The position numbers and the translations under genes are program-made. This document shows positions 542 to 29,233 of a DNA stretch of 29,233 nt, piece after piece; within the stretch, counting starts at the first letter, position 1, and every line of letters begins with the position of its first letter. The notes under the pieces were generated by a model. It searched no databases, had not been told where the DNA came from, and worked only from the letters and a program-made list of their open reading frames with translations. The DNA comes from a virus, in the IMG/VR virus record IMGVR_UViG_3300027933_000004; one strand, written 5' to 3'.

Positions 542-720
542 CCAATTTTTTTCAGTTGGCGGTGCTGAAATTGGAAGTTTAGAACAAAACATTTATATAC
601 TTTCATCTTTCCAAAGTTGCAGCTTTGAATTTTTTATCCAATTTTTTCAGCTTCACGCTTGCAAAATTGGAAGGTTATGAAGAAAGATTTAAATATCACC
701 AGAAGAAAGCATATATTCGG
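542..720. repeat. Two ~96-bp direct repeats inside ITR-L (mirror 28514..28692)
   Basis: Copy A starts at 542 and copy B at 638. Each has CCAATTT...AAATTGG inverted arms (542-548/568-574 and 638-644/664-670) followed by a TATA-like box (acatttatatac; agaaagatttaaatatc). Confidence 0.75.
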
Positions 721-12687: not shown

Positions 12688-13053
12688 ATGAATTTCAGAC
12701 AATCTGGAAAATACTATGAGTATAAAACTATTGAATTTTTGGAAAAAAATGGCTATAAAGCTATAAGAATTCCAGTTTCTGGAACTGGAAAACAACCAAT
12801 TCCAGATATTGTAGCGACTAAGAATAATACAATTTTTCCAATTGAAGTTAAGTCAACTTCACAAAATCATATTTATGTAGACAGTTTTCAAATTGAAAAA
12901 CTGTTTAAATTCTGTGAATTGTTCAATTTCTGTAATTGTAAGCCGTTAGTTTTAGTTCACTATAAAAAATATAAAACTGTCATAATATATAGTTTAGTCC
13001 AAGATGTCAGAAGTAAAAAGAAAATCAAATTTGAATACAGAGGTAACAGCTAA
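12688..13053 (+). CDS. hjc: Hjc-type Holliday junction resolvase (121 aa)
   Basis: Archaeal Hjc nuclease core: E..(EFLEKNGY), PDIVA, IEVKS (D-x(n)-E-x-K). Same 121-aa length as the SIRV resolvase. Confidence 0.9.
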   Translation: MNFRQSGKYYEYKTIEFLEKNGYKAIRIPVSGTGKQPIPDIVATKNNTIFPIEVKSTSQNHIYVDSFQIEKLFKFCELFNFCNCKPLVLVHYKKYKTVIIYSLVQDVRSKKKIKFEYRGNS

Positions 13054-16751: not shown

Positions 16752-17567
16752 ATGAGCGTAAATTTATGCAGATATGAGACACAAAATATAGGTTATAACG
16801 ATTTGGAAAAATTAGGAGATAATGTTTATTATGAAATTAAATATGACGGTACTCATATTTGTTTAAAGTTTGAGAACGAATTAAAAATTAATACTAGAAA
16901 TGATATTCCTCATGAAAAATCGTATCAGAATTTATTTTATCAAGTTGCAGGAATTGATGAAGTTATTAAATTTCTAAAGAAAAATTCACAATATATAATT
17001 CATGGAGAACTAGTACATAAGAAAACGTCAGGTATGCAAATACATACAAATGAAACACCTATATTTGTAATATATGATATATTTGATAAAGAAAATAACA
17101 AATATTTAGACCCGTTTAAAAACCATTTCGAAATTTCTTCATGGTTTATATTAAATTACTATAATATCGAATATATTTTAAACATAGTTTTGAAAGAAAG
17201 GTTAGAAGGAATAGTTGCTAAATTATATAATTATGAATCAGAACAATGTAAGGAAGGGCAAAATTTTAACTTATGCGTTTATAAATACAAACCTTATTTC
17301 TCAACTTTAGGAGTTATATTCAAACCTGTTAGAAAAGAACTTGATGTTAGAAAATTGTCATTTTTATTAGGAGAAATTGATAATGATTTGAAATATAATA
17401 AAAATAATTGGTATGAGAATCATCCAGAACTTTACGAATTCTTTATTAAAAATAAAGATAAGATAATAAAAATACTTCAAAATCAAAACATTGTGTTGCA
17501 AATACAAAAAGATACACATTTAGATATTAATAAAATAAAAGAATATATAAAAAATTTCGAAAGATGA
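16752..17567 (+). CDS. ATP-dependent ligase-like covalent nucleotidyltransferase (271 aa)
   Basis: All five nucleotidyltransferase motifs are present in order: I EIK30YDG, III IIHGE86LV, IIIa IFVIYDIFD, IV E152GIVAK, V VYK178YK180P. Confidence 0.8.
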   Translation: MSVNLCRYETQNIGYNDLEKLGDNVYYEIKYDGTHICLKFENELKINTRNDIPHEKSYQNLFYQVAGIDEVIKFLKKNSQYIIHGELVHKKTSGMQIHTNETPIFVIYDIFDKENNKYLDPFKNHFEISSWFILNYYNIEYILNIVLKERLEGIVAKLYNYESEQCKEGQNFNLCVYKYKPYFSTLGVIFKPVRKELDVRKLSFLLGEIDNDLKYNKNNWYENHPELYEFFIKNKDKIIKILQNQNIVLQIQKDTHLDINKIKEYIKNFER

Positions 17568-25555: not shown

Positions 25556-26445
25556 TGAAGCTAATATTTGGAGTTAATGTTACAACTAGTTATCTTTTTG
25601 AAACCAACTTCCCAGTTTTAGTAAACCAACTAAAACTAAAGCAAATAAATTGGAAAAATGAGACTTGGATAGATAGCGGAGGCTACCAAATTGCGTCACA
25701 CGGACTAAAAATTTCTGTAAATGATGTTCTGCAAAAGTATAAAAGCGTTAATGCTTATGCTTTCTTTTCGCTGGACATACCAAGTATTTTTTCACCACTT
25801 AACAAAAGAAATTTTCAATACTTTGAATATCTTTACGAGAAGATGGAATGGATTGAAAAAATTATCCCGGTCTTACATCTTTATCCAATTCAAGAAGTTG
25901 ATGAAGCTATTGATTTCTATAAACAATACAGTTACTATTTTGCAATTGGAGGCTTAATCACATCCAGCAAAATGAAAATTCTAATTTATACATTTCCGTG
26001 GGTCTATTATCTAAGAAGAAAAGTTCCGTATTTACACGTTTTAGGCATGCCGGCTCCATATTTCCTGCAGACGTTTAATTTTGCCGAGAGTATGGATACG
26101 GCAACTTATAGCAAAACAGCCGCATTTAGAGAAATATTTTGGTTTAATGGAACTAGAAGATATGTAGGAAAACGAAAAGCAAAGAGAATAACTAGAGAAG
26201 AAAAAGAACAATTATTTGAATTTTTGGATAAACATAACTTTCCATTCGTCTATGATTTAAGTAATTTCAAAATTCTAGAACTTATAAATGCGTATATGTT
26301 ACTGTATAACAACTGGAGAATTAAGAATAAGTATACAGAATATGCTAAAAAATTAAGAGGAATGGGATTTGATAGTTTAGCAAGCGAGTTAATTAGAAAT
26401 TATAAGATTGCAAATGGAATATTAAAACAGAAACGAGAAAAATAG
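25555..26445 (+). CDS. Minimal TGT/DpdA-like (queuine/archaeosine) transglycosylase-fold protein (296 aa)
   Basis: WIDSGGYQI (TGT DSGGFQ), FAIGGLITS (TGT AIGGLSVGE) and YLHVLGMPAP...ESMDTATYSK (TGT LMGVGTP...DMFDCV). There are no Cys residues at all, so no TGT zinc site. The start overlaps the permease stop (taATGa). Confidence 0.8.
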   Translation: MKLIFGVNVTTSYLFETNFPVLVNQLKLKQINWKNETWIDSGGYQIASHGLKISVNDVLQKYKSVNAYAFFSLDIPSIFSPLNKRNFQYFEYLYEKMEWIEKIIPVLHLYPIQEVDEAIDFYKQYSYYFAIGGLITSSKMKILIYTFPWVYYLRRKVPYLHVLGMPAPYFLQTFNFAESMDTATYSKTAAFREIFWFNGTRRYVGKRKAKRITREEKEQLFEFLDKHNFPFVYDLSNFKILELINAYMLLYNNWRIKNKYTEYAKKLRGMGFDSLASELIRNYKIANGILKQKREK

Positions 26446-26458
26446 TGCATAAAAAAAA

Positions 26459-26680
26459 TTATTGAAATTGTTGAGAATTTATGAGTTGAGAAAAAAGGTT
26501 TTGTGCATATTTAGAGTCGTGCCCGTGATAATAAAAGTTTCTGTCTTTGCCATCAGCAACAAAAACCCCCCATCTGGAGGAAGAACAGCAATTACACTTA
26601 GCCAGAACTATATTATTTTGAATTTTAATTTGCTGAAAGTTATGGAATTGTATGCCAATTATGTATAACACTTTTCTCAC
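26459..26680 (-). CDS. Right-arm cassette ORF (73 aa, GTG start), hypothetical
   Basis: BRE/TATA box 23 nt upstream. TAA is followed by T8. There is no internal Met, so a GTG start is needed. Confidence 0.5.
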   Translation of the reverse strand: MRKVLYIIGIQFHNFQQIKIQNNIVLAKCNCCSSSRWGVFVADGKDRNFYYHGHDSKYAQNLFSQLINSQQFQ

Positions 26681-26703
26681 TACTTATAACTATGTAAACA
26701 GTT

Positions 26704-26722
26704 ATATTTAAAGCTTTCTCTA
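26704..26722 (-). promoter_or_regulatory. Cassette promoter (reverse complement tagagaaagctttaaatat), copy 1
   Basis: Identical 19-mer at 27203-27221. The TATA lies 23 nt from the start at 26680. Confidence 0.6.
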
Positions 26723-26821
26723 AGTTTTTACGTTTGTAGCTCATGACAGTTAAGTAATATTATTACAAACTTGAGACAAATAGACGATAAAAATAAGAGA
26801 AGTAAAAAATGAGAACAAAAT

Positions 26822-26839
26822 AAGAAAAATAAAAAATAA
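26822..26839 (-). terminator. Oligo-T terminator directly after the TAA of the 112-aa ORF
   Basis: The reverse complement reads TAA-ttattttttatttttctta. Confidence 0.55.
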
Positions 26840-27178
26840 TTATGAACGGAAAATTGTCATATGTTGCCTCCACCAGCCGTGGGGGAGGAGAAAATATTTT
26901 CCTCCTCCACTATCATAGACAGACATAAGTGAGCTTTGAATGATAGACTTAACTTCCTCATCCGGGGAGTCCAACTCGGGCTCCCCGACAAATAACCATT
27001 CCCAGTGCGGGCAATCCCGCACCTGGGTGATTACGCTGTACCCTTCCCAGCTTTCAAATACTGTAGCCAACATTTGGCTACAGGAAGGGCAAACAAGGCG
27101 ATTATATCGTCTGTCGCCCTCCCATCTTCCCTTCTGGTAGAAGGGTTTTGAGGAATTTACTTCTGCCACCTTTTCCAC
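26840..27178 (-). CDS. GC-rich foreign-looking ORF: Trp-rich protein with a CxxC...CxH putative Zn-ribbon (112 aa, GTG start)
   Basis: CPSC at residues 30-33 and CPHW at 56-59. There are 55 G+C in 26941-27040 against 26 in 17001-17100. A cassette promoter lies 24 nt upstream. Confidence 0.6.
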   Translation of the reverse strand: MEKVAEVNSSKPFYQKGRWEGDRRYNRLVCPSCSQMLATVFESWEGYSVITQVRDCPHWEWLFVGEPELDSPDEEVKSIIQSSLMSVYDSGGGKYFLLPHGWWRQHMTIFRS

Positions 27179-27202
27179 CTGTACTAATCTATGTCTAAAC
27201 TC

Positions 27203-27221
27203 ATATTTAAAGCTTTCTCTA
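27203..27221 (-). promoter_or_regulatory. Cassette promoter, copy 2
   Basis: Same 19-mer as 26704-26722, and the flanks are also similar (ctatgt..aaac..atatttaaagctttctcta..ttttta). Confidence 0.6.
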
Positions 27222-27365
27222 TCTTTTTATTTCTCTATCTTTTGCGTTTTTGTATTTAGTGTTATATCGTTAAGCCAATGAGACGTTATAAAATAATAAC
27301 AATCGAAATATTAAAACTGGCCTGAGAAAAATGATTGATAAAAAATAGGTAGAATAAATTAAATG

Positions 27366-27388
27366 CGAAAAAAAGTAGTAATAAAAAA
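27366..27388 (-). terminator. Oligo-T terminator after the TAA of the 64-aa ORF
   Basis: The reverse complement reads TAA-ttttttattactactttttttcgc. Confidence 0.5.
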
Positions 27389-27583
27389 TTATTCTGTTAT
27401 CCACCTGGTTCCGGAAAAAACAAAAACCCGGAACCTTTCGCCTTCCTTAATACTTATAAACGCCCCCGCTTGAAGCGGGGTGACTTCATAAAAACCAGAA
27501 AATATTTCTGTTACAACTACATCTTCACACCTAATTATTGGTGTGAAGATATATAGATCCTTCTCGCTGATATACCAGTCCAT
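27389..27583 (-). CDS. Right-arm cassette ORF (64 aa), beta-rich hypothetical
   Basis: The ATG lies 22 nt after TATA 27606-27614, and TAA is followed by a T-run. The 3' half is GC-rich (47 G+C in 27401-27500) and contains two perfect hairpins. Confidence 0.55.
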   Translation of the reverse strand: MDWYISEKDLYIFTPIIRCEDVVVTEIFSGFYEVTPLQAGAFISIKEGERFRVFVFSGTRWITE

Positions 27584-27605
27584 GTCTATACTTTTGTAAA
27601 AACAA

Positions 27606-27622
27606 ATATATAAATCTTTCGC
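27606..27622 (-). promoter_or_regulatory. BRE/TATA promoter (reverse complement gcgaaagatttatatat)
   Basis: Same 17-mer as 9794-9810. Confidence 0.55.
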
Positions 27623-27668
27623 CTGACTTACAATTTAGACAGTCAACTTAAAAAATAGACCGAATAAG

Positions 27669-27678
27669 TTAAATATAA
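27669..27678 (+). promoter_or_regulatory. TATA box for the 48-aa ORF
   Basis: ttaaatataa lies 22 nt upstream of ATG 27701. Confidence 0.5.
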
Positions 27679-27700
27679 CTTCTGTAAGAAGTTTATACAT

Positions 27701-27847
27701 ATGAGAATTGTTGAGGACAAGGATGGAGAAAGATTTCTGGAGTTCGAGAGTAAGGAGGATTTAGAAGAGTTTAGGAAGATGTTGATTGAGGCTTATTATG
27801 AGCTTAATGAAAATAGGAAAAAACAAACTAAAAGCACAAGAAAATAA
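27701..27847 (+). CDS. Small acidic protein (48 aa), paralogue of 10087..10200; not in the ORF track
   Basis: My manual translation is MRIVEDKDGERFLEFESKEDLEEFRKMLIEAYYELNENRKKQTKSTRK*. The TATA sits at leaderless spacing. Purine-rich, with 39 G+C in its first 100 nt. Confidence 0.55.
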   Translation: MRIVEDKDGERFLEFESKEDLEEFRKMLIEAYYELNENRKKQTKSTRK

Positions 27848-27879
27848 AAAATAAAAAATAAAAATAAAAAATTATTGCT
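27848..27879 (-). terminator. T-rich region (minus strand) downstream of the right terminal gene
   Basis: The plus strand reads aaaataaaaaataaaaataaaaaatt, which gives repeated T5-6 runs on the minus strand, 9 nt after the TAA at 27880-27882. Confidence 0.5.
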
Positions 27880-28137
27880 TTAAGAAAATCTGGTATTTAT
27901 TATGCTTACCAACTGCAGCAAAAACGTCTTAAATTGCCACGTCACTTTTTCGTCTTTCCTTAACTCTAATAATCTTTTGATATAACTATCCAAACTTTCA
28001 TTTTCTTCTGGAATTAGTTTCCATTTGCAATACCATTCTTCTTGGTTATTCTTCGGCGTGTAATTTTGAATTAACGGAATAATTTCTTGCTTTAAGAATT
28101 CTTGAAACTCCTCACTCACCTTTTCCTCCTCTACCAT
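27880..28137 (-). CDS. Right terminal hypothetical protein (85 aa)
   Basis: Starts 27 nt inside ITR-R. It shares the promoter and the first 9 codons (MVEEEKVSE) with the left terminal gene, then diverges completely. Confidence 0.65.
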   Translation of the reverse strand: MVEEEKVSEEFQEFLKQEIIPLIQNYTPKNNQEEWYCKWKLIPEENESLDSYIKRLLELRKDEKVTWQFKTFLLQLVSIINTRFS

Positions 28138-29233
28138 ATCTATGCATCTCCTAACTTATAAACTTTTCTGCATCTTTGTATATTTGCACTTTTATTTTTC
28201 CAACAGTATTATTTTCGCCTCTCCACCATTTTACCCTTTAACTTGCAAAAATATTTTAAATCATTTCTCTTCTTTTTCTCTTTGCAACTAATATTTCCGA
28301 ATGAACATGCTGTATACAACACTGTATACTCCGGAGAAATATCTCTGGCGGGTTTGCCGTGTAAATTATAACTATTAACTACTAACTAGCTAACTACGCA
28401 ATATTACAATATAGCAATATAACAACTAACTAACTAGTAAGTTAATAGTTATATAATATAGTAGTTGTATAGTTGTATAATATAAAATAATAAGAAGAAA
28501 GATAATGCAGACTCCGAATATATGCTTTCTTCTGGTGATATTTAAATCTTTCTTCATAACCTTCCAATTTTGCAAGCGTGAAGCTGAAAAAATTGGATAA
28601 AAAATTCAAAGCTGCAACTTTGGAAAGATGAAAGTATATAAATGTTTTGTTCTAAACTTCCAATTTCAGCACCGCCAACTGAAAAAAATTGGCGAGAATG
28701 AAAACGGAAAACAGAATAATGTAACTTATAATATGTTTAGTAACTAAAAGCTTACAATTAGGAGTGGACTTTTTTCTAATTAATAGTTATATAGTTCCCA
28801 ATTAATATATTCACAACATGTAGAATTAGTTGTAACTTACAAGTTTACAATAATATAACTTTATCTAGCAATATGACAGATTATTTGTAACTTACAATTT
28901 AACAACTTATTAGCTTTATTTAGTAAATTGCACGAAATGATAGATTATTTGTAAGTTAGGAATTTACAATTTATACTGTTTTTCAAGATAATAACGCAAA
29001 ATGATAGAATATTTGGAAGTTACAATTTATCAACTTTATTGCGAAATTTACGCAAAATGACAGATTAATTGGAATTTCCAATTTCTCAATTTACCCGTGA
29101 AAAAAACTTAATTTACGAAAAAAACGCAAAATATTGGAATTTCCAATTTCTCAACTTTCTCGCGAAATTTTCCCAAAAAACGATAAAAACCGCAATTGCT
29201 TAGCCAGGATTTTGCAATTGCAGAGCCCTAGCT
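28111..29233. repeat. Right inverted terminal repeat (ITR-R)
   Basis: Reverse complement of 1..1123. Divergence begins at 28110 (left reads aaggaag, right reverse complement reads gagtttc). Confidence 0.97.

Follow-up and report, generated by a model that had tools for sequence, protein, structure and literature searches.

A GC-rich two-gene module with hairpin-rich coding sequences in native promoter cassettes of a usarudivirus-like genome

Why does an AT-rich virus carry, close to its right end, two short open reading frames (ORFs) that are far richer in G+C than the DNA on either side of them? The locus belongs to IMG/VR virus record IMGVR_UViG_3300027933_000004, analysed over its whole length of 29,233 nt (the window). 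An earlier note on this DNA had described the two ORFs as recently acquired foreign genes dropped into native promoter and terminator DNA and as candidates for anti-defence or host takeover. The window is a usarudivirus-like sequence of 29.2 kb and 29.5 % GC; since both ends are perfect 1123-bp inverted terminal repeats (ITRs; 1-1123 and 28111-29233), it is read as a complete linear genome. The two genes lie ~0.5-1.3 kb from the right ITR:

27389-27583, minus strand: gene for a 64-aa protein, ATG start, product predicted all-beta; 39.5 % GC, hairpin-dense
26840-27178, minus strand: gene for a 112-aa protein, GTG start, 48.4 % GC, GC content at third codon positions (GC3) 0.52; zinc-ribbon-like product with CxxC...CxH, new family

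As a whole, the evidence leans towards a captured accessory module that is held in native early-type cassettes, is under selection for hairpins in its coding sequences and would act in host takeover or anti-defence.

The GC island is real and far beyond chance. Windows of 339 nt had a mean of 29.5 % GC (standard deviation 3.4), and the maximum of 49.0 % was reached by those starting at 26843-26846, that is, by the 112-aa ORF, which is the strongest compositional outlier in the window; the deviation suspected in the earlier note thus survived a windowed analysis. Its hand counts were exact (55 G+C in 26941-27040, 47 in 27401-27500 and 26 in 17001-17100, a ligase-like gene), and the jump in composition matches the ORF bodies as it had stated, with flanks back to 23-29 % GC. 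At the three codon positions (GC1/GC2/GC3) the 112-aa ORF has 0.50/0.43/0.52 against means of 0.38/0.27/0.25 in the 37 other ORFs (GC3 standard deviation 0.07). Amino-acid composition was rejected as the cause for this gene because GC3 is as high as GC1. It does account for a second GC peak, 41.3 % at ~6768, which falls in the major capsid protein gene and stems from codon position 2. The 64-aa ORF is a weaker outlier (GC3 0.385).

In both genes the synonymous codons form a chain of GC-rich hairpins that are predicted to be stable at 80 °C, and they do so only in the rudiviral copies. Compared with dinucleotide shuffles, the 112-aa gene folds with a z-score of -6.3 on the sense and -7.8 on the antisense strand, seven alleles of this gene range from -3.7 to -7.3, and the 64-aa gene reaches -6.3, against a mean of -0.5 (standard deviation 1.7) for 35 other genes of the window. 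A stricter shuffle exchanged synonymous codons within the gene and left protein and codon pool unchanged (100 shuffles). The seven 112-aa alleles still gave z -3.3 to -6.1, none of the 100 shuffles being equally stable, and the 64-aa gene gave -1.8 to -4.3. Homologues of equal GC from elements that resemble tailed spindle viruses (donor-type elements, described below) scored -0.9 to +1.0 in this test, the neighbouring 73-aa gene 0.0 and the capsid gene -0.7. With dinucleotide shuffles, seven donor-type homologues lay between -1.6 and +1.1. Known genes of rudiviral termini, acrID1 and its paralogues among them, scored between -2.0 and +1.8, with a predicted minimum free energy (MFE) of 0 to -5 kcal/mol at 80 °C. 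At that temperature the MFE was -37.6 kcal/mol for the 112-aa gene (shuffles -18.0; ordinary viral genes -2 to -4) and -13.2 kcal/mol for the 64-aa gene (shuffles -3.2). The predicted hairpins are:

27518-27553, 27463-27482 and 27407-27435, minus strand: hairpins of the 64-aa gene
27129-27145, minus strand: another of the main stems of the 112-aa gene
27095-27120, minus strand: hairpin in the codons for DRRYNRL; alignment columns 93-99 pair as GC in 4 sequences and as AU in 2
27061-27083, minus strand: perfect 9-bp hairpin in the hypervariable stretch past CxxC
26992-27034, minus strand: largest hairpin, a bulged stem of 18 bp in the codons for VITQVRDCPHWEWLF; targeted as protospacer by two CRISPR spacers
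26963-26987, minus strand: 9-bp hairpin in the codons for GEPELDSP; compensatory columns 216-234 and 219-231, GC in 5 and AU in 2
26884-26908, minus strand: 11-bp hairpin in the codons for GGGKYFLLP

In the consensus of the alignment, 94 % of the cells are paired, compared to 46-56 % when the partners are slid by 1-3 columns, and ten pairs are compensatory. Within the 27095-27120 hairpin the third position of an Arg codon (CGA/CGG) covaries with that of an Asn codon (AAT/AAC). The metagenomic contig L001 has a different 6-bp hairpin (GGTGGC/GCCACC) where the window has the one at 27061-27083. The strongest signal is carried by the C-terminal 62 codons, with codon-shuffle z-scores of -2.2 to -4.9 in all 7 alleles. 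As a separate observation, the Holliday-junction resolvase gene at 12688-13053 on the plus strand (Pfam Hjc, E = 4e-20), which has ordinary composition, also folds strongly against dinucleotide shuffles (z -5.1).

In the AT-rich genomes of hyperthermophiles, structural RNA genes classically stand out as GC-rich islands, and the present island shares with such RNA genes the local GC excess, the very negative z-scores and the stems predicted to be stable at 80 °C. It differs from them in that what folds is an ORF that codes for protein, is under purifying selection and matches no Rfam family: in Rfam 15 no family reached the gathering score, the best weak match being GEBRO with 20 bits versus 284.7. 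The 112-aa protein has seven metagenomic homologues with 66-83 % identity, the 64-aa protein eight with 72-89 %. Codon-aligned, the 112-aa gene varies at 80 of 108 third positions, as opposed to 38 first and 27 second positions; pairwise ratios of nonsynonymous to synonymous substitution rates (dN/dS) are 0.05-0.29 for this gene and ~0.19 for the 64-aa gene in comparison to L001. Judged by these substitution patterns, both ORFs are real protein-coding genes under purifying selection. A structured non-coding RNA gene, whose ORFs would be artefacts of the low stop-codon density in GC-rich DNA, could explain the very strong folding scores, and is hardly credible in view of the third-position variation, the dN/dS values, the confident structural model of the 112-aa protein and its distant protein homologues, which at 25-41 % identity still share the invariant Cys and His residues; this explanation was rejected.

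From the codon-shuffle results we infer that selection on base pairing, most likely at the level of the mRNA, now keeps the two genes GC-rich. The codon-shuffle result is given more weight than the covariation because the latter comes from 7 related sequences and the structure was derived on the same alignment. Further points that weigh against selected mRNA structure are the modest folding of the N-terminal module (z 0 to -2.75, weak in some alleles) and the about equal folding of both strands, also at 80 °C, owing to which RNA- and DNA-level structure are indistinguishable here. The symmetry of the strands would suit hairpins that act in the DNA, as cruciforms or as folds of single-stranded DNA during strand-displacement replication, or as priming or recombination signals for the exchange of cargo, and the region is indeed a recombination mosaic near the right ITR. 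We give this alternative little weight: only one lineage and two ORF bodies have the hairpins, so these are not a general rudiviral replication element, and several changes in hairpin 9 keep G-U pairs on the sense strand that would be C-A mismatches on the other strand. At the RNA level, the hairpins may stabilise or shield the transcripts at high temperature. A bolder version holds that immediate-early accessory genes were recoded as hairpin arrays which harden their transcripts at 80 °C against RNA-directed immunity and decay of the host, the threats countered being binding of type III CRISPR RNAs, collateral single-strand RNases such as Csx1 or Cmr-beta, and the exosome. We consider this speculative and decidedly improbable. 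If true, the hairpins would add an RNA-level layer of anti-defence to the action of the proteins, and the hardening of the transcripts would explain why GC-rich cargo is retained in a slot of an AT-rich virus. Synonymous sites tuned for heat-stable pairing in a hyperthermophile virus would make the role of mRNA structure in the arms race, a question that usually escapes testing, experimentally tractable.

Spacers against this virus were present in two metagenomic contigs that are CRISPR arrays (L013:1-1418 and L014:1-1102) with the repeat GTCGCATCCCAGAAAGGAATTGAAAG, which had no exact match in the GTDB species genomes. At least 9 of the 21 spacers in L013 and at least 10 of the 16 in L014 match the virus at 89-100 % identity. 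Spacers L013_sp11 and L014_sp10 match 26985-27022 and target the largest hairpin; further protospacers lie at 26870-26897 and at many other sites. Since the arrays were retrieved via that very spacer, an enrichment cannot be claimed. Most protospacers are flanked 5' by TCN or CCN, and the site of L014_sp10 has CAG where a TCN protospacer adjacent motif is expected.

The control DNA around the two genes is made of repeated elements, also found at the neighbouring 73-aa gene:

27584-27620, minus strand: promoter of the 64-aa gene; core GAAAGATTTATATA at 27607-27620, 24 nt 5' of the ATG
27342-27388, minus strand: T-rich terminator region after the 64-aa gene; repeat families D1 and D2
27179-27240, minus strand: promoter block of the 112-aa gene; core GAAAGCTTTAAATA at 27204-27217, 26 nt 5' of the GTG
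26790-26839, minus strand: T-rich terminator region after the 112-aa gene; repeat family D1, T runs on the minus strand
26705-26718, minus strand: promoter core of the 73-aa gene, same core as that of the 112-aa gene
26459-26741, minus strand: neighbouring cassette with the 73-aa gene (26459-26680), of ordinary composition, used as internal control

The core GAAAGCTTTAAATA, a transcription factor B recognition element (BRE) with TATA box, occurs seven times in the window when up to two mismatches are allowed, compared to 1.9 expected, and none of 100 shuffles reached seven. A 52-nt repeat (D3) is 77 % identical between the upstream blocks of the 73-aa and 112-aa genes. In the 73-, 112- and 64-aa genes the core ends 24-26 nt before the start codon, a spacing that implies leaderless mRNAs. 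Rudiviral early-gene promoters have the TATA box TTTAWATA and a BRE with G at -6 and A at -3 (PMC11065993). In a simplified pattern test, which is not the MEME/RSAT threshold of that paper, the promoters of both genes conform to this type, with GAAAGC followed by TTTAAATA 26 nt 5' of the 112-aa start and GAAAGA followed by TTTATATA 24 nt 5' of the 64-aa start. The same core is found upstream of the validated acrID1 (gp02) of Sulfolobus islandicus rod-shaped virus 3 (SIRV3) and of its gp01, presumed to be aca8 from its homology to SIRV2 gp01. All related rudiviral contigs have the core at matching positions, and the donor-type elements lack it. The intergenic DNA with the promoters and terminators shows 93-100 % identity between the window and L001 (27211-27300, 100 %; 26790-26839, 98-100 %). 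Contig L026 has an unrelated 98-aa ORF in this frame, which shares the promoter, the four initial codons (GTG AAA AAG GTG) and the terminator with the 112-aa gene. The description of the ORFs as cargo in native cassettes is well supported by the repeated promoter block, the T-rich terminators and the conserved flanks, because promoters and terminators are shared while the slot in L026 holds another ORF. By these signals, each gene is delimited as a monocistronic cassette in native AT-rich control DNA. Such a clear natural exchange of cargo within a fixed cassette illustrates how these viruses sample genes of other mobile elements. The 98-aa ORF in the slot of the 112-aa gene (L026:592-888) has 56 % GC, GC3 0.65 and an MFE of -37.5 kcal/mol at 80 °C, and matches phrog_25812 (E = 1.6e-6) and phrog_21073, both of unknown function. 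Copies of the early-type promoter core also occur in the ITRs (682-695, plus strand; 28539-28552, minus strand), with no obvious ORF behind either.

The cassettes lie where usarudiviral genomes diverge. SIRV4-11, usarudiviruses from Yellowstone, align with ~75 % of the first 25 kb of the window at ~80 % identity. In the 2.5 kb tested to the right of the tRNA-ribosyltransferase gene (26000-28500), DNA-level matches to SIRV genomes were short and came from SIRV3 only, thus by alignment the part past this gene is a variable arm. The equivalent arm of SIRV3 holds acrID1 and one paralogue of the AcrID1 family. Searched with tblastn against 50,697 phage records including SIRV1-11, neither the 112-aa nor the 64-aa protein had a match. 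The check for their presence in related rudiviruses, proposed in the earlier note, therefore gave a divided answer: absent from SIRV1-11, conserved in metagenomic relatives. The two genes are adjacent in every contig that bears the 112-aa gene and reaches far enough upstream (L001-L008, L010, L011), and contigs that are long enough show them beside the same tRNA-ribosyltransferase gene. Together, the 64-aa and 112-aa genes make the island a conserved accessory module of two genes in the variable right arm. The adjoining 73-aa gene matches phrog_27628 and has 56 % identity to SIRV10 gp48.

A profile search placed the 112-aa protein in a previously undescribed, wholly metagenomic family of 48 small proteins, which measure 55-118 aa (the shortest are two fragments) and have the pattern CxxC...DCxH[YFW]xW[VI]F[VI]G...LxPPxDxETK...GGKYFLLP. 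Identities are 65-84 % in the rudiviral clade, 34-97 % among the other members and 25-41 % between the two groups. The protein of the window has the CPSC...CPHW motif and six Trp residues. C30-x2-C33 and C56-x-H58 are invariant in 42 sequences, and the AlphaFold2 (AF2) model, with a predicted local distance difference test score (pLDDT) of 85, places the two knuckles between strands 23-29/36-43 and 48-53/59-64, followed by an alpha/beta C-terminal half. A zinc ribbon, as first guessed from the motif, is plausible on these grounds: sequences and model agree on two conserved knuckles on beta-hairpins. The variable residues cluster around the CxxC knuckle and would form a hypervariable surface. 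Small size and two zinc knuckles on beta-hairpins are shared with archaeal zinc-ribbon micro-proteins (PF23137, HVO_0758). Pfam matches in this comparison were weak and covered residues 24-58 (E = 0.006 for the protein of the window; 5 of 42 members match, best E = 0.0014), and the scores are far under the gathering threshold; the second knuckle of the new family is CxH, not CxxC, and the family has the additional alpha/beta half with its invariant GGKYFLLP and no neighbour in the PDB. Matches to Pfam HVO_0758 and TackOD1 were sub-threshold, the structural leads to GNAT, kinase and cereblon folds in the PDB were noise (template-modelling (TM) score <0.31), and so was a sequence lead to UBC/E2 (E = 0.025). 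Distant members match phrog_36930, a group of unknown function. The 64-aa product had been called beta-rich, which holds in so far as it is predicted all-beta (AF2 pLDDT 92), and is qualified by the model being confident in one of five cases; no neighbour of the predicted structure was found in the PDB.

The other members of the family occur in elements of 40-43 % GC that resemble tailed spindle viruses, often in two copies. These donor-type elements have long co-directional operons, DUF1374 proteins, an integrase and an AAA+ ATPase with 41 % identity to that of Acidianus tailed spindle virus. Because the genes of these elements have a GC3 of about 0.5 (mean 0.48, standard deviation 0.08; family members 0.51-0.53), the family is compositionally at home there. 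The GC3 of 0.52 of the 112-aa gene departs from the 0.25 ± 0.07 of the window and agrees with the 0.48 ± 0.08 of the homologue-bearing elements, as expected for horizontal acquisition, and by identity ranges the family is more diverse in the donor-type group than in the rudiviral clade. Composition and homology are best read as the result of a capture: recombination would have brought the 112-aa gene from a tailed-spindle-type mobile element to its place behind a rudiviral promoter. The claim of foreign origin is hence borne out for the 112-aa gene, through homologues in elements of matching GC3, and not for the 64-aa gene. Some points weigh against capture from such an element: the 64-aa gene has no donor among the sequences searched, and composition and diversity, the latter in the form of identity ranges, are the basis for the direction of transfer. 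A cellular donor was not detected in one genome per GTDB species, a search of IMG/VR found no homologue, a donor-type element had no match to plasmids, and a 64-aa ORF preceding a family member in L017 showed no homology to the 64-aa gene.

If the 112-aa gene was captured, was it captured recently? The composition equals that of the genes in the 40-43 % GC elements, and a plain recent transfer, with the donor composition not yet ameliorated and the hairpins incidental, would be the simplest account. The rudiviral alleles, however, differ from each other with a proportion of synonymous differences (pS) of 0.28-0.81, mostly saturated, and all have 45-52 % GC and a GC3 of 0.48-0.58. Even where most synonymous sites differ between alleles (pS 0.5-0.8), the high GC3 is retained, therefore "recently acquired" fails. 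The view of the composition as a mere leftover of the donor does not fare better in light of the layout of hairpins through synonymous codon choice, since the native sequences outfold synonymous-codon shuffles and the donor-type homologues of equal GC do not. The direction of substitutions offers the recent transfer some room: singleton third-position changes were 8 from G/C to A/T versus 6 from A/T to G/C, and this underpowered test has too few changes to exclude slow amelioration, a point that also speaks against selected GC richness. Altogether, a plain recent transfer appears distinctly unlikely. The locus is like the compositional islands left by horizontal transfer in the atypical GC and GC3 confined to ORFs, the better-matching background of the homologues and the native flanks, and unlike them in the lack of amelioration despite saturated synonymous divergence and in a composition that serves pairing.

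Selection for structure, preferred here over donor composition alone, would have acted on a gene that keeps recombining, with swaps of an N-terminal module and different cargo in the slot of a related virus. The 112-aa gene consists of two modules:

27029-27178, minus strand: N-terminal variable module, codons 1-50 with the CxxC knuckle, swapped among alleles by recombination
26840-27028, minus strand: C-terminal conserved module, codons 51-112, with the strongest structure signal

Between the window and L001 the synonymous substitution rate (dS) is 0.84 in the 112-aa gene and 0.21-0.35 in the neighbouring genes. The excess is limited to codons 1-50, with 62-70 % identity in 27031-27180 and 90-100 % in the surroundings. 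In L008 the C-terminal 62 codons are identical to the window, and the N-terminal ones differ with pS 0.655 and a proportion of nonsynonymous differences (pN) of 0.218. The pattern points to recombination of old alleles with a swapped N-terminal module. Assembly chimeras could contribute to such a mosaic, but independent JGI and ENA assemblies agree on the pattern. Inside the 73-aa gene the identity to L001 drops to 52-67 % in 26473-26592, with 90 % and more around it, which suggests another recombination patch.

What might the proteins do? Known archaeal anti-CRISPRs (Acr) come mainly from the termini of rudiviruses, where most genes are uncharacterised. The earlier note had drawn on this location, and annotated Acr genes do occur in rudiviral terminal regions. 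The two proteins may be early-expressed factors of host takeover or anti-defence. For the latter role, which we propose tentatively, the promoter type, the position, the dispensability and the hypervariable surface form the basis. In the comparison with the cassettes of anti-defence genes (ADG) such as SIRV3 acrID1 (gp02) and SIRV2 acrIIIB1 (gp48) (Bhoobalan-Chitty et al. 2024, PMC11065993), the two genes are alike in being small and single, each with its own strong BRE/TATA promoter, in a terminal variable region and not conserved among close relatives, and some ADG are likewise shared with tailed spindle viruses. They are unlike these genes in that the proteins have no sequence relation to the tested Acr or ADG families, in their atypical composition and in their hairpin-tuned coding; AcrID1, its paralogues and SIRV3 gp01 are encoded without such hairpins. 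Profile comparison spoke against membership in the AcrID1 family, SIRV3 gp02 and paralogues (hhalign of profile A6 against alignment A7, probability 0.3 %), and the 50 best PDB matches did not include the AcrID1 structure 6EXP. The best BFVD match was an uncharacterised 88-aa protein of SIRV1, Q5W370 (E = 5e-4, TM 0.54/0.67). An AcrID1-like ORF, likewise of 88 aa, is present in SIRV1 variant XX. No homologue of the Aca8-like terminal ORF of SIRV1 and SIRV3 turned up among the ORFs of the window's terminal regions.

Several observations count against an anti-defence role. Early expression is suggested by the promoter alone, no relative of the 112-aa family in Pfam, PDB, BFVD or annotated PHROGs informs its function, and in donor-type elements the family members stand in long operons beside genes for a ribbon-helix-helix (RHH) protein and an AAA+ ATPase, a placement that hints at a role in regulation or replication over anti-defence. 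Binding of nucleic acids or of polymerase subunits is common among zinc ribbons. The proteins could therefore be ordinary regulatory or replication accessory factors, e.g., zinc-ribbon nucleic-acid binders, in keeping with the tailed-spindle-type operons and their frequent two copies. We regard such a function as a serious rival, though somewhat unlikely, given that the gene is dispensable at the genus level (absent from SIRV1-11), lies in a terminal accessory region behind the promoter type of validated Acr genes and varies most at surface residues around the zinc knuckle. Host takeover or anti-defence thus remains our candidate role, and the new, structurally confident zinc-ribbon-like family, common to rod-shaped and tailed-spindle-like elements, provides a defined candidate for anti-defence screening.

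Contacts between rudiviruses and tailed-spindle-like elements were seen elsewhere. The anti-defence family ADG.17 is common to usarudiviruses and tailed spindle viruses (PMC11065993). A 179-aa gene (phrog_13554, E = 1e-68) is common to L017:11877-12416 and SIRV10 gp44 (L019:3010-3567); gp44 adjoins the tRNA-ribosyltransferase gene and is a second case of gene flow between a tailed-spindle-like element and a rudivirus at the same position. In L023 (65-6997) a family member with its usual neighbours (173, 80, 68 and 47 aa) adjoins cas4, cas1, cas2 and a gene for a cas3-like helicase, past which lie cellular genes for electron transfer flavoprotein and ferredoxin; the arrangement suggests an integrated element beside a CRISPR adaptation module. 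The tailed-spindle-like contigs L017 and L025 have called "genes" of 64 and 92 aa (L017:8477-8671 and L025:5264-5542; 55-57 % GC) at the start of the long operons that bear family members. Their folding z-scores are -12 and -16, Rfam and Pfam gave no match, and they could represent structured non-coding elements or replication origins. In the left arm of the window, a 111-aa ORF at 1674-2009 on the plus strand (38 % GC, GC3 0.39, dinucleotide-shuffle z -2.8) has weak winged-helix-like Pfam matches to DUF7343 and Trans_reg_C and may be a second compositionally atypical accessory gene.

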